64,000 nt of DNA from a virus: the IMG/VR virus record IMGVR_UViG_3300010373_000040, positions 21,240 to 85,239 of that record; one strand, written 5' to 3'. The notes beneath the pieces are model-generated. The model was not told the DNA's origin and did not search any database. It worked only from the letters and a program-made list of their open reading frames with translations. Of the stretch, positions 27,919-31,675 are shown one piece after another. The position numbers were made by a program, and so were the translations under genes. Position 1 is the stretch's first letter. Every line of letters starts with the position of its first letter.

Positions 27919-27950
27919 TTTGGATACCACCTTTCCAGCAATTATATTTG
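27919..27950 (+). promoter_or_regulatory. Bacteroidota primary-sigma promoter
   Basis: TTTG (27919-22) N20 TATATTTG (27943-50). Confidence 0.6.
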
Positions 27951-28245
27951 CACGGAGTATTTATGAGTACAAATATCCTACACTGCGATTTAAGGGAAGA
28001 TAAGCTAAAGATTAGAAGAGTAGCAATAAGAGATGTATTATACTCCTGAGTTTGACCACGAGATCCGTCCAATCCATACTCATATAAATAAACTAAGATA
28101 GAATATAACTATATGGGTTTTATAAAAACTAAAATTACAAGTAGAGCGAGAGCTATAGGATCATCAACATTAAAGTACAAGTTTTTAAAATCAAATTCAT
28201 CAACCACAACTATAAATACACCGCTACATAAATTAAAATACAAGT

Positions 28246-28668
28246 ATGATTAAAGCAATAGTAGATTCAGTAAGTGTTAGTAATGGAGAAGTAACCAAGT
28301 TCTCAGTAATAGATGATGCTAGAGGTACTGTAGGAAGCTTTCAGTTGTTTGAGAGTGATGAGAGTAAATATGGACAGTATAAGGTTGGTGATGAGTTTAG
28401 CTTAGAGTTATTCCCTACTGGGTTTGTTATGCCTGAATACAAACATAAAGAACCTACTTCAGTGGTTGAGCCTATACCAGAGCCTGTAGAAGAACCAACC
28501 TTTATAGATAAGGTGAAAGACTTTTTCACCCCAGCTTCTACTACAGAAAGCCCAGAAACAGTATCTATCACTCCAGAGGTTGTAGTTCCTCCTGTAGAAC
28601 CAACTCCAGGATTAGATGCTCCTACATTTACAGCACCAACTACTGATAGTCCTGCTCCTACAGTATAA
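28246..28668 (+). CDS. Hypothetical protein with Pro/Thr/Glu-rich C-terminal tail
   Basis: ORF track. Confidence 0.7.
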   Translation: MIKAIVDSVSVSNGEVTKFSVIDDARGTVGSFQLFESDESKYGQYKVGDEFSLELFPTGFVMPEYKHKEPTSVVEPIPEPVEEPTFIDKVKDFFTPASTTESPETVSITPEVVVPPVEPTPGLDAPTFTAPTTDSPAPTV

Positions 28669-28779
28669 TCAATATACTTATTCTGCATCCCATTAGAACT
28701 GCACGCTTAGAATAAGTCTTATGTTAACCCCTCCCTAGATAGTATCTTTGGACCCCATCCTATCTCGAATTAGGAAACT

Positions 28780-28820
28780 ATCCCTCTGAGGTTAAAATCT
28801 TAGAGGGATTTGTTTGTTTA
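28780..28820 (+). terminator. Intrinsic terminator insulating the tRNA operon promoter
   Basis: ATCCCTCTGAG...CTTAGAGGGAT stem followed by TTGTTTGTTT. Confidence 0.7.
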
Positions 28821-28843
28821 TATTAATCTATCTACTATATTTG
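28813..28843 (+). promoter_or_regulatory. Bacteroidota primary-sigma promoter of the leader-tRNA operon
   Basis: TTTG (28813-16) N19 TATATTTG (28836-43); expected TSS at or near ATG 28848. Confidence 0.75.
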
Positions 28844-28847
28844 TTGC

Positions 28848-28922
28848 ATGAACAATTTATCACTACATCTTCAACCGCAGCGCACTCCCTTATCTAGGGA
28901 AGCAAGTGGTTATTGTGTGTAG
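28848..28922 (+). CDS. Putative attenuator leader peptide MNNLSLHLQPQRTPLSREASGYCV (24 aa)
   Basis: Starts 4 nt after the promoter element; codons 6-12 CTA CAT CTT CAA CCG CAG CGC; ends TAG TAG TAA. Confidence 0.75.
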   Translation: MNNLSLHLQPQRTPLSREASGYCV

Positions 28923-28947
28923 TAGTAAAAAAGCTCCAACATTATTT

Positions 28948-28982
28948 ATCCCCTTGCTGAGAAGTTAGGGGATTTCTGTTTT
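28948..28982 (+). terminator. Attenuator terminator upstream of the tRNA array
   Basis: ATCCCCT-TGCT-GAGA-AGTT-AGGGGAT + TTCTGTTTT; 5' arm CTTGCT can alternatively pair with AGCAAG (28901-06). Confidence 0.75.
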
Positions 28983-28990
28983 ATATACAT

Positions 28991-29064
28991 ATAGTGGGAT
29001 AACGGTCAGGTTGTTTACCTGCCTTGGAAGCAGGAGGTCGAGGGTTCAAATCCCTCCCACTATA
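28991..29064 (+). tRNA. tRNA-Pro(TGG)
   Basis: Acceptor ATAGTGG/CCACTAT; anticodon arm CCTGC-CTTGGAA-GCAGG; T-arm GAGGG-TTCAAAT-CCCTC; atypical D-arm; no CCA. Confidence 0.85.
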
Positions 29065-29065
29065 C

Positions 29066-29139
29066 GACACAGGTTTTACGTACTGTCACCTGCCGAGAAA
29101 CAAAAAAGACAACGATACAGTTAGGGAGAGACCTAAACA
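29066..29139 (+). ncRNA. Unidentified structured RNA in tRNA spacer (pseudoknot + hairpin)
   Basis: CAGGT/ACCTG stem; loop ACTGT complementary to ACAGT (29117-21); TTAGG-GAGAGA-CCTAA hairpin. Confidence 0.4.
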
Positions 29140-29140
29140 T

Positions 29141-29212
29141 TTTCCTGTATGCTAATTGGCAGGCAATCTGACTTTGACTCAGATGGTACAAGTTCGAATC
29201 TTGTCGGGAAAA
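29141..29212 (+). tRNA. tRNA-Gln(TTG)
   Basis: TTTCCTG/CGGGAAA; TCTGA-CTTTGAC-TCAGA; ACAAG-TTCGAAT-CTTGT. Confidence 0.92.
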
Positions 29213-29214
29213 CT

Positions 29215-29287
29215 GTAGAGTTGCGCTAAGTGGTTAAGCGGACTGCCTGTGAAGCAGTTTATATGAGTTCGAGCCTCATACTCTACC
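29215..29287 (+). tRNA. tRNA-His(GTG)
   Basis: GTAGAGT/ACTCTAC; ACTGC-CTGTGAA-GCAGT; ATGAG-TTCGAGC-CTCAT; C73. Confidence 0.92.
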
Positions 29288-29290
29288 CAC

Positions 29291-29362
29291 ATCTCTGTAG
29301 ATCAATGAATAGATCAAGTAGCTACGAACTACTAGATAGAGGTTTGAATCCTCTCGGAGATA
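29291..29362 (+). tRNA. tRNA-Arg(ACG)
   Basis: ATCTCTG/CGGAGAT; AGTAG-CTACGAA-CTACT; AGAGG-TTTGAAT-CCTCT. Confidence 0.9.
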
Positions 29363-29365
29363 CCT

Positions 29366-29439
29366 GCCCAATTGGTGGAATTGGTAGACACACAGGTCTT
29401 AGAAACCTGTTTTTATAGGTTCGATTCCTATATTGGGTA
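29366..29439 (+). tRNA. tRNA-Leu(TAG) with short variable loop
   Basis: GCCCAAT/ATTGGGT; Leu-type D-arm GGTGGAATTGGTAGACAC; CAGGT-CTTAGAA-ACCTG; ATAGG-TTCGATT-CCTAT. Confidence 0.9.
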
Positions 29440-29449
29440 CTTTAAAATT

Positions 29450-29487
29450 AAAGGTATGTTCTCTTGTGAGTATGCCTTTTTTTATTT
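29450..29487 (+). terminator. Terminator closing the tRNA operon
   Basis: AAAGGTATG...TATGCCTTT stem followed by a T run. Confidence 0.7.
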
Positions 29488-29562
29488 ACTATTGTACATA
29501 ATCACATATAGGTAAACACCTAAGTACATATATGTGAATAACACCTAAACACTAAACTTATT

Positions 29563-29898
29563 ATGGAAACACTAATGACTTTTGGAGAAGCTCTTGAACT
29601 TGTTAAACAAGGGAAATTGATTTCTAGACAAGGTTGGAATGGTAAAGGTATGTTCATCTTCCAAAGACCTGAAGACAGCATTCACATCAGTACTGTAATT
29701 ACTCAAGTAAAATCGCTCCCTGCTGCAGTAAAGAGCTTTTATACTTCTAGAGTATGGGCTGATTCTGAGAACCAGATGGTTAAATTCACTCCATACTTGT
29801 GTATGAAAGCTGCTGATGATAGCATTGTAAATGGTTGGTTAGCATCTCAGACTGATATGTTGGCTAATGATTGGTCTGAGTTCAGCTACGGAGTATAA
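29563..29898 (+). CDS. tad2: DUF2829 / Thoeris anti-defence 2 (Tad2)-like signal-sponge protein
   Basis: MTFGEALELVKQGKLISRQGWNGKGMF...GWLASQTDMLANDW signature of DUF2829. Confidence 0.85.
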   Translation: METLMTFGEALELVKQGKLISRQGWNGKGMFIFQRPEDSIHISTVITQVKSLPAAVKSFYTSRVWADSENQMVKFTPYLCMKAADDSIVNGWLASQTDMLANDWSEFSYGV

Positions 29899-29977
29899 AC
29901 ATTTACCGTATGATGGCTAAGGAGATCTTGGTCTGGGCCTGTAAACCTCATGAAACAAAGGTAATTTTAACACTAGA

Positions 29978-30229
29978 ATGAATATCCCAAAAGAAGCAGT
30001 AGAGAAGTTTAAGACCATAGTTGAATTACGACTCTACTGCTATATTTGTGATAACTCTTTTGAAGGTATGTGGCAACTCACCTGGATAGAGAAGATGGAA
30101 TTGAAAGATCAATACTTCATTAAAGCCAATCAAATCCCTAGAGCTTTAGAGAACCTAGTAAAAGAAGGAGTATTGAGTAGAGTTAAAAAAGGGGTTTATA
30201 AACTAGAAACACTTAATGAAGCCATATAA
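29978..30229 (+). CDS. Putative winged-helix DNA-binding protein
   Basis: IPRALENLVKEGVLSRVKKGVYKL helix-wing pattern. Confidence 0.55.
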   Translation: MNIPKEAVEKFKTIVELRLYCYICDNSFEGMWQLTWIEKMELKDQYFIKANQIPRALENLVKEGVLSRVKKGVYKLETLNEAI

Positions 30230-30913: not shown

Positions 30914-31121
30914 CCTTCCAGAGGCTATAGTATCGAGGATTCAGAAAGCTAGAGGTTTAGCAACTGAATCCTCTTTATCTTTGCAGAAACAAAGGTTAGA
31001 GATTTGTGATAAGTGTCCTGAGAAGAAAATGATAGGGACTGAGGTTTGTGGCCTCTGTGGCTGTTTTTTGCAGCTCAAGACATTAGTAGAAGATGAACAT
31101 TGTCAAATTAAGAAATGGTAG
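30900..31121 (+). CDS. Cys-rich Zn-binding protein (DUF6171-like)
   Basis: RLEICDKC...CGLCGC.LQLKT.....C..KKW; start moved to MSLSNL. Confidence 0.65.
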   Translation: MSLSNLPEAIVSRIQKARGLATESSLSLQKQRLEICDKCPEKKMIGTEVCGLCGCFLQLKTLVEDEHCQIKKW

Positions 31122-31675
31122 ATATAGAAGAAATTACTATAGACAAGCTTATAAACGAATATGGAGGAATTCATATTAGAGGGTATGAAGATTATATAGT
31201 CCTTCCGACAAGTGAAATATTTTCTATAAAGTTCAATACTATAAGAAAATTAGTTCCTCAGATATTACATAAAAATGGAAAACCTTCGGCCTATAGACAA
31301 ATTGTGGTAAGACAGCAGGGCAAAGACCCTGCCAGGAGGTTGATTCACAGAATTGTAGCAGAGACATTCATACCTAATCCAGAAAACAAACCTCAAGTGA
31401 ATCACAAAGATGGTAATGGGTCTAATAACCATGTTGACAACTTAGAGTGGTGTACAGGTCATGAAAATATGGCTCATAGCTTCAGAATATTAAAAAGAAG
31501 AATGGCTGTAGGAGAAAAAGTACATTTAAGTAAACTTACAGAAGAAGAGGTTATAATGATACGAAAAATATATCCAAAGGGACATGCTACACAACAAGAG
31601 TTAGCCAAAATATTCAATTGTCATCCAACAACAATATATTCTGTTTTAAGTTACATAACATGGAAACATATTTAA
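31115..31675 (+). CDS. HNH homing endonuclease with C-terminal HTH
   Basis: IHRIVAETFIPNPENKPQVNHKDGNGSNNHVDNLEWCT; SKLTEEEV...QQELAKIF. Confidence 0.9.
   Translation: MVDIEEITIDKLINEYGGIHIRGYEDYIVLPTSEIFSIKFNTIRKLVPQILHKNGKPSAYRQIVVRQQGKDPARRLIHRIVAETFIPNPENKPQVNHKDGNGSNNHVDNLEWCTGHENMAHSFRILKRRMAVGEKVHLSKLTEEEVIMIRKIYPKGHATQQELAKIFNCHPTTIYSVLSYITWKHI

Follow-up and report, generated by a model that had tools for sequence, protein, structure and literature searches.

We analysed a group of five transfer RNA (tRNA) genes and the short leader in front of them in a phage genome. The window, the whole stretch of 64,000 nucleotides that was analysed, comprises bases 21240-85239 of the 85,239-base IMG/VR virus record IMGVR_UViG_3300010373_000040, which has direct terminal repeats. 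The TerL, portal and major head proteins matched PHROG families. A tblastn search with TerL returned 160 phage records, all below 60% identity (best 36%) and nearly all of them crAss-like phages of Bacteroides, Flavobacterium or Cellulophaga. A Shine-Dalgarno-like word stood upstream of 13 of 111 roughly called genes, and the region before the start codons is A/T-rich. These protein matches, together with the scarcity of Shine-Dalgarno words, indicate that the source virus is a crAss-like phage (Crassvirales) of a Bacteroidota host. Its DNA stems from soil metagenomes, with run X1 as the probable source. An earlier reading of the same DNA (the original prediction) had proposed that the leader is a ribosome-mediated attenuator, which senses the decoding of codons beginning with C (CNN codons) and controls an operon of CNN-reading tRNAs. 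Coordinates below are those of the window, and all features in it are on the plus strand unless stated otherwise.

The locus begins with the intrinsic terminator of a gene for a 140-amino-acid protein (28780-28809), which has a 13-pair stem and a T-rich tail and is predicted to insulate the tRNA cassette. Behind it lies a Bacteroidota sigma-A type promoter (28813-28843), with a -33 TTTG at 28813-28816, a 19-base spacer and the -7 box TATATTTG at 28836-28843, so that the promoter TTTG-N19-TATATTTG behind an upstream terminator was present as originally described. It fits exactly the rule of a -33 TTTG and a -7 TAnnTTTG at 19-21-base spacing, a pattern that by itself occurs at chance frequency (3 matches in the window, 2.4 expected). 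According to the available portion of a study of Flavobacterium psychrophilum, the sigma-A -7 box TAnnTTTG covers positions -12 to -5 (PMC9723704). Transcription is therefore predicted to start at A28848, the first base of an ATG, in agreement with the start at or near this ATG given by the original prediction, and the mRNA is probably leaderless. The box at 28836-28843 was the sole -7-like box within 28800-28995, and no second one (at most one mismatch) was found between 28844 and 28995. With no promoter-like box after 28843, host polymerase would therefore reach the tRNA genes only by reading through the terminator that precedes them.

The ATG at the predicted start opens a candidate leaderless open reading frame (ORF; 28848-28928) of 24 codons (28848-28919), and the frame closes at the foot of a hairpin with the stacked stops TAG TAG TAA (28920-28928). 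Codons 6-12 (28863-28883) are CTA CAT CTT CAA CCG CAG CGC, encoding Leu His Leu Gln Pro Gln Arg, and codon 14 is CCC; in all these points the original description of the ORF was accurate. This run of seven CNN codons, the proposed sensor, encodes each of the five amino acids served by the tRNAs behind it and no others. Six of the seven codons are readable by the five phage tRNAs under standard wobble rules, and CTT would require four-way wobble. The claim that this genome otherwise avoids the CpG codons of the run was borne out for its coding genes (CGC twice and CCG 16 times in a rough gene set of 26,090 codons), an argument that has weight only if the ORF is translated.

The CNN run was then compared with chance expectation. 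Runs of at least seven CNN triplets appeared in 0.07% of 20,000 dinucleotide shuffles of the leader and in 0.01% within an ORF, and 0.015% gave such a run with all five amino acids. When the C-rich hairpin arm that contains the run was shuffled, a run with all five amino acids had a P of 0.00075. Among genomic 143-base windows, 0.85% held a run of at least seven CNN triplets. Such period-3 C runs are not rare in the whole genome: its two strands held 12 with a length of at least seven, most of which lay antisense to genes or outside their reading frame, and two of the 12 carried all five amino acids. These results showed that the CNN run is improbable by chance.

ARAGORN and Rfam agreed on five tRNAs directly downstream, at 28991-29440, confirming the set that had been named: tRNA-Pro (TGG, 28991-29065), tRNA-Gln (TTG, 29141-29213), tRNA-His (GTG, 29215-29288), tRNA-Arg (ACG, 29291-29364) and tRNA-Leu (TAG, 29366-29440). 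All have NNG anticodons. Together they represent every amino-acid family of the CNN row of the genetic code and none from outside it, and their anticodon loops are all of the form C-U-NNG-A, with G36 and A37 (CTTGGAA in tRNA-Pro). The Escherichia coli argX-hisR-leuT-proM operon likewise contains only CNN readers. The cassette is closed by a terminator found in the terminator scan (29450-29479). Its right edge is marked by a copy of a -7-like box, TACTATTG (29487-29494), which is followed by a palindrome element (29487-29545 in total). Most of the tRNA genes lie 1-2 bases apart, and tRNA-Pro and tRNA-Gln are separated by 75 bases (29066-29140). This spacer had no Rfam or ARAGORN match and could be a decayed tRNA or a processing spacer.

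We next considered the folding of the leader. The minimum-energy fold of the 143-base leader had -38.7 kcal/mol (z -3.24), which none of 200 shuffles equalled, and it consisted of two hairpins. The first, a long imperfect hairpin (segments 1:2; 28856-28929, -24.2 kcal/mol), lies over the ORF. The second is the terminator hairpin (segments 3:4; 28948-28985), with a stem of 7 + 3 pairs and a GAGA loop at 28948-28973 (-14.1 kcal/mol) and a U-rich tail at 28974-28985. The strict consensus terminator scan missed the 3:4 hairpin because of an internal mismatch in its stem, and a looser scan picked it up. Segment 2 (28901-28912) is predicted to pair alternatively with segment 3, the 5' arm of the terminator (28947-28958), forming a 2:3 antiterminator of -10.9 kcal/mol. 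Thus, the 1:2 and 3:4 pairings of the original prediction are those of the minimum-energy fold, and the 2:3 pairing exists, but it is not clearly above chance, as described below. Rfam (E<=1) gave no match to a T-box riboswitch or any other family within 28848-28990; its matches were the five tRNAs and three weak ones elsewhere.

To model the ribosome, we used full masking, in which the RNA is hidden from its 5' end to the ribosome front, a treatment that we judged physically more apt for a leaderless mRNA. The probability of the terminator stem was 0.97 without a ribosome and at least 0.89 with the P site at codons 1-4. It fell to 0.73, 0.52, 0.13 and 0.15 at codons 5, 6, 7 and 8, and was at least 0.96 from codon 14 to the stops. 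The antiterminator was the minimum-energy fold at P-site codons 7-12. In this model, the predicted terminator would give way only while the 5' arm of the long hairpin lies under the ribosome front. The ribosome-masked folding suggested with the original prediction thus gave the expected loss of the terminator at codons 7-8 under full masking, and a switch at 1 of 9 ribosome positions under the narrower masking described below.

Based on these elements, we favour, with moderate confidence, the interpretation that 28813-29479 forms a tRNA cassette complete in itself, whose expression is controlled by a ribosome-mediated (leader-peptide) transcription attenuator. Host RNA polymerase would start at or next to A28848, giving a transcript that begins with AUG. 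When no ribosome is present, or when a ribosome reaches TAG TAG TAA, segments 1 and 2 would pair or segment 2 would be covered, and the hairpin at 28948-28973 would stop transcription before tRNA-Pro. A ribosome lingering on the seven CNN codons (28863-28883) would instead hold the 5' arm of the long hairpin. The freed 3' arm (28901-28912) could then pair with the 5' arm of the terminator (28947-28958), and polymerase would enter the five tRNA genes. Since the five tRNAs would jointly decode the CNN quadrant, the circuit would exert negative feedback on CNN-decoding capacity. The analysis establishes the sequence elements and their order, their predicted folds and the improbability of the run; we infer transcription start, translation of the ORF, stalling, termination, read-through and any link to host defence.

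Sequence variants of the locus were obtained from contigs of four public runs aligned on 28200-30000; being contigs, they are uninformative on transcript ends, and the search for runs with this stretch yielded none from RNA. An 893-base contig from an independent soil run (X2) was identical to the window. A second variant (X3), a 282-base contig over 28780-29060, had 11 substitutions and 3 gap letters in 281 bases (about 95% identical). No difference fell in 28835-28885, which holds the -7 box (28836-28843, intact), the ATG and the CNN run, or in 28948-29060, which holds the terminator and tRNA-Pro, and ten differences were clustered in 28886-28947. The ORF of X3 carried one synonymous change and three replacements (S16F, R17K and V24M), and both TAG stops were retained. 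The long hairpin was also retained; G28917A converts a G-U pair to A-U, and three changes at the apex let the tip re-pair in a shifted register. T28947G, found in X3 and in a further variant (X6), loses the end pair of 2:3 and extends the terminator stem, and the terminator hairpin (28948-28985) was unchanged in both. The X3 variant thus fits an attenuator in which codons and structures are kept and the peptide tail varies. At this level of identity, it would also suit a purely structural leader.

A more distant comparison was provided by L097, a metagenome contig of 1,228 bases that encodes a 62% identical version of the upstream 140-amino-acid protein. Its orthologous site has the upstream terminator, in which two of three stem changes keep the pairing, and a TTTG-N19-TATCATTG box with one mismatch, which lends support to the promoter of the window. 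Directly after this promoter it has a palindrome element and then tRNA-Phe(gaa); in the window the palindrome follows the terminator that closes the array. The comparison (L097 1060-1228) therefore marks the segment from about 28846 to 29482, with the leader, the five tRNAs and the terminator, as an insertion, and tRNA genes seem to use the site behind the promoter as a landing place. Of the homologous loci, to which the original prediction had looked for a possible refutation, X2 and X3 keep all features and L097 is without the whole cassette. The palindrome (window 29497-29535; L097 1097-1134) has an 8-pair stem around a loop of about 22 bases and might serve as an operator or form a 5' stem-loop. 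We also considered whether the long hairpin arose by expansion of the L097 palindrome, but abandoned this idea because the leader showed no significant similarity to that palindrome (P 0.57) or to the right-hand promoter region (P 0.78). Between a conserved upstream element and the start of the 140-amino-acid gene, the window also has about 140 extra bases (28107-28245) with a 46-codon open frame, where the two abut in L097 (at about 465).

Further relatives of the locus were searched for in several collections. The upstream 140-amino-acid protein had two homologues; one contig, L097, was recovered from metagenomes and none from genome or viral collections. A blastn search of 28700-29500 against 50,697 phage records gave no match, and exact-word scans of IMG/VR found nothing for the CNN run, the terminator hairpin or the Gln-His tRNA junction. 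The 22-base CNN word occurred exactly once in 596 billion bases of prokaryote genomes. This occurrence, in a Deltaproteobacteria metagenome-assembled genome (L098, 3859-3880), was set aside as chance, as the coding region around it is unrelated, its flanks are not similar to those in the window and no tRNA is present. A TerL relative that is 97% identical (L083) begins inside TerL and stops short of the locus. No tRNA lay within reach of the recovered stretches of six other loci (L084-L089); in the record behind the first of these, tRNAs Arg(TCT) and Leu(TAA) lie between genes, and a leader ORF was not visible. None of the 60 scanned loci (of 80 found) with a neighbour like the gene 3' of the cassette, described below, carried tRNAs.

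Because the statistic for the window might have been chosen after the fact, we surveyed 120 IMG/VR tRNA-array loci, which hold 1,494 tRNAs in 466 blocks. After exclusion of 180 single-tRNA blocks and of 38 blocks with more than 9 amino-acid types or fewer than 110 usable upstream bases, 248 blocks including that of the window were tested for the longest run of block-matching codons in an upstream ORF. The window had a p of 0.004 and ranked 5th of the 248. The tail of the distribution was over-filled, in that p<=0.002 was reached by 4 blocks where 0.5 would be expected, and p<=0.01 by 7 where 2.5 would be expected, but its bulk was not (11 blocks at p<=0.05 against 12.4 expected). A terminator followed the ORF in 5 of the 7 blocks with p<=0.01 and in 59 of the 241 others (Fisher 0.014, a comparison that counts the window and two identical leaders).

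One conserved family stood at the head of the ranking, with leader ORFs in L106 (42-110, minus strand), L124 (95-154), L137 (10174-10242), L168 (155-217) and L211 (3573-3641, minus strand), of which L106 and L211 have identical leaders. Its members have a sigma-70-like promoter, a Shine-Dalgarno-like site and an ORF of about 20 codons with TGG and CCA, followed by a small hairpin, a strong terminator (-18 to -21 kcal/mol) and a Trp(CCA)-Pro(TGG) block, with no promoter between. The peptide is conserved and ends in Gly-Met-Ser, and L168, the sole member with Ile(TAT), has two ATA codons. Like the window, this Trp-Pro family thus combines a promoter, an ORF of about 20 codons that includes codons of the first tRNAs, a strong terminator and a tRNA block without an intervening promoter. 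It has no sequence similarity to the leader of the window and uses a sigma-70-like promoter and a Shine-Dalgarno-like site, in contrast to the leaderless start predicted here. Three other blocks were set aside: L158, which has a promoter-like TTGACA box after its terminator, and L204 and L161, which resemble parts of longer coding sequence, L161 being also without a terminator. The scan of other tRNA arrays called for by the original prediction therefore yielded a second family and a high rank for the window, but loose tracking of codons. The sequences suggest that a class of codon-matched leaders with a terminator exists beyond the window, with support that comes largely from one family.

Several results weigh against an attenuator at this locus, the first group of them concerning the switch itself. 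A duplex as stable as the best 2:3 pairing (-10.9 kcal/mol) was obtained with 20% of 2000 shuffled versions of segment 2 and with 5% of genomic 43-mers. Masking restricted to a 30-base footprint left the terminator in the minimum-energy fold at 8 of 9 ribosome positions, and the antiterminator formed at 1 of 9. Even with full masking, the ensemble again favoured the terminator at P-site codons 9-11 (0.84-0.85). Among 300 shuffles of 28893-28946, 6.7% reached a minimum of 0.15 or less, the native value being 0.118. The modelled geometry is right for an attenuator, but the antiterminator alone is weak evidence and is not statistically secure. The predicted energies are within the range that works kinetically in classic attenuators. 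The second group concerns the codons. The run lies in a C-rich hairpin arm, and shuffling this arm alone gave a run of at least seven in 0.44%. The match over the whole ORF (11 of 23 codons) was not significant (binomial p 0.13), each tRNA has 1-2 codons in the run, and none of the phage anticodons is a Watson-Crick match to CTT, CCG or CAG. The third group comes from comparison. L097, the sole related locus here, has tRNA-Phe(gaa) after the same promoter without a leader ORF or terminator, and TerL relatives at 40-42% identity are without such an array. No diverged homologue of the leader, as covariation of the pairings would call for, was found in the collections searched. In the Trp-Pro family, leader codons otherwise track block contents loosely, and a full-masking switch window was present in 2 of 4 distinct members. 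Finally, leaderless mRNAs are rare in Bacteroidota, at 3.7-5.5% of mRNAs. Very short 5' untranslated regions make up about 3.7% in Bacteroides thetaiotaomicron (PMC7366714), and the available portion of PMC9723704 gives 5.5% leaderless mRNAs in a Flavobacterium. The same text mentions "strong clues" for leader-peptide attenuation ahead of Flavobacterium amino-acid operons, so that attenuation and leaderless mRNAs, taken by analogy, would offer a host-side precedent for the attenuator. Overall, the promoter position, the start on the ATG, the codon run, the masking, the X3 variant and the second family speak for the attenuator of the original prediction, and its antiterminator (20% of duplex shuffles, 6.7% of masking shuffles) is the part that did not hold up firmly.

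The strongest alternative, which we regard as somewhat unlikely, is a structured, non-translated 5' leader that acts as a constitutive partial terminator or insulator, or as the target of a protein or RNA factor, and sets the tRNA level from a strong resident promoter. The ORF and the CNN run would then be incidental to a C/A-rich arm paired with a G/U-rich arm. The strong fold (z -3.24) suits this explanation, as do all four X3 hairpin changes, which are structure-compatible, and the fact that three of the four ORF substitutions alter the amino acid. The antiterminator does no better than chance, a run becomes about six-fold more likely given the C-rich arm, period-3 C runs are found in 0.85% of genomic windows, and L097 uses the same promoter for a tRNA without an ORF. 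However, a run of seven still has a P of 0.0044 given the composition of the arm, and 0.00075 with all five amino acids. A structural leader also would not lead one to expect an ATG exactly at the predicted start and stacked stops at the hairpin foot, or a modelled terminator loss confined to ribosome positions inside the run.

A distinctly less probable explanation is that the leader is a small RNA gene in its own right, about 130 nucleotides long and made up of a 5' hairpin, an A/U-rich single strand and an intrinsic terminator, which happens to precede the tRNA array. Transcription of the tRNAs would then depend on leaky read-through or on a polymerase that is insensitive to the terminator. 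The order of promoter, hairpin, A/U-rich linker and terminator is the layout of many bacterial small RNAs, and X3 shows no change in the terminator or in the first 38 bases. The window has open frames for very large proteins (1645 and 2279 amino acids), and in crAss-like phages the very large virion proteins include an RNA polymerase, which is general background on these phages rather than a result for this one. On the other hand, no Rfam family matched 28848-28990 at E<=1, none of the searched collections yielded a homologue of the leader, the tRNAs would have no recognisable promoter, and the match of the codons to the five tRNAs would be left unexplained. That the leader is functionless debris from the capture of a tRNA block, such as the last part of a foreign gene together with the terminator of that gene, is very improbable, since the insertion from about 28846 to 29482 relative to L097, the resemblance of the 3:4 terminator to the upstream one (P 0.012) and the greater frequency of period-3 C runs in coding-derived sequence are met by the lack of any open frame of at least 20 amino acids on either strand across the leader beyond the short ones already listed, by a fold far stronger than shuffles, and by an X3 variant whose 5' part and terminator are unchanged while the spacer between them has diverged.

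We also asked when a cassette gated by the favoured attenuator would be used. The original prediction had named cleaved, hypomodified or uncharged host tRNAs as the trigger, with reference to TrmD-dependent decoding, and this part found little support. In the 120 sampled IMG/VR loci, 13 of 67 tRNAs Pro(TGG) and 28 of 47 tRNAs Leu(TAG) have A37; it is therefore not exceptional among sampled phage tRNAs, and the TrmD idea was given little weight. The codons of tRNA-Arg(ACG) are hardly used by the phage (CGT, CGC and CGA together 37 of 886 Arg codons; CGN 45 of 886). Directly 3' of the cassette lies a gene (29563-29898) for a Tad2-like protein (Thoeris anti-defence 2-like, PF11195; 86 bits against a cut-off of 25). 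The rare Arg(ACG) codons and the Tad2-like neighbour would suit counter-defence better than codon compensation, and they are silent on the switch. A wider reading is that the cassette is a mobile "CNN-quadrant rescue module", with a leaderless sensor ORF, a terminator opened by slow CNN decoding and a minimal set of five tRNAs (G36, A37) that reads 15 of the 16 CNN codons. Its task would be to counter a host defence, or a loss caused by the phage, to which tRNAs with NNG anticodons fall victim as a class, and it would be one instance of a general, as yet undescribed rule of codon-matched leaders gating phage tRNA arrays. Taken as a whole, this proposal is unlikely. No nuclease is known to us that targets all NNG-anticodon tRNAs.

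Several known systems resemble the proposed switch. Multivalent leader-peptide attenuators occur in enterobacterial operons, such as thr (Thr and Ile), ilvGMEDA (Ile, Leu and Val), and also his, trp, leu and phe. They share with the window a short promoter-proximal ORF, a cluster of codons for several amino acids in segment 1, an alternative 2:3 pairing, a stop placed so that a finishing ribosome covers segment 2, and a U-tract terminator before the regulated genes. However, they regulate biosynthetic enzymes, whereas the targets in the window are tRNAs, and the candidate sensor would measure the activity of its own product (decoding) rather than amino-acid supply. The window differs further in that the mRNA is probably leaderless and phage-borne, each tRNA has 1-2 codons and the antiterminator is not statistically secure. 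In the Salmonella mgtL and mgtP leaders, Pro codons couple decoding speed to alternative RNA structures. These leaders control chromosomal Mg2+ transporter genes, while the window mixes five codon families and has tRNAs as targets. Among the enterobacterial leaders, pheL appears in PMC3082878.

A leaderless precedent comes from mycobacteria, where, according to the accessible part of the report, polycysteine short ORFs act as cysteine-responsive attenuators (bioRxiv 10.1101/834739). As described there, they share with the window a leaderless 5' short ORF whose codon content senses supply and controls downstream genes, but they belong to a different phylum, sense one amino acid and have protein genes as targets. 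The long tRNA operon of Anabaena PCC 7120 is silent and is induced by translational stress, as given in the available portions of PMC8421152 and PMC10272220. Like the switch proposed here, it is an accessory array that is off and is turned on when translation is impaired. According to the part of PMC8421152 at hand, control is at the promoter level, with direct repeats over the -10 box and the start site and a repressor; the terms "attenuat", "leader peptide" and "terminator" were absent from the main text as available. Phage tRNAs that counter tRNA-cleaving defences have been described (PMC10264068, PMC11464382 and PMC11555353, each as available in part). The window likewise carries tRNAs, and adds a Tad2-like neighbour and a tRNA-Arg(ACG) for almost unused codons. 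In the accessible portions, these papers treat the action of the tRNAs and not a decoding-sensing switch upstream of them.

Some further observations were made in the window. The 3' arm and tail of the 3:4 terminator (28944-28990) resemble the upstream terminator (28799-28823), with a local score of 24 against 14.7 +/- 2.8 for shuffled sequence (P 0.012), and the resemblance could be due to duplication or convergence. A second exact promoter pattern, TTTG-N20-TATATTTG, was found at 27919-28049, where an ATG 13 bases on opens a 28-codon frame. A second copy of the promoter spacer was rejected as a chance match because it sits within a coding region. The word AACACCTAA occurred 7 times against 0.8 expected (29515-29548, 8482, 23654, 24818, 44929 and 47178), often 10-25 bases ahead of a start codon on the strand of the gene. 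It is present twice before the Tad2-like gene and twice in L097, and may be a regulatory or initiation-region motif of the phage. An HNH endonuclease gene lies at 31115-31672.

A literature search covering titles and the starts of abstracts found no published account of a leader-peptide attenuator ahead of a phage tRNA array, in line with the original prediction, so that the logic of classic attenuation applied to tRNA genes in a phage would be new. It is debated whether phage tRNAs serve codon compensation or escape from tRNA-cleaving defences, and when they are used. If the attenuator is real, a switch on decoding speed that is answered by the matching tRNAs would be a new use of classic attenuation, because the regulated product is the molecule that is sensed. 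The question of whether phage tRNAs are made on demand would then become a simple reporter experiment, and the leader would offer a small and portable device for sensing the capacity to decode chosen codons. The similar layout in an unrelated sampled phage family suggests a general rule rather than a lone oddity.

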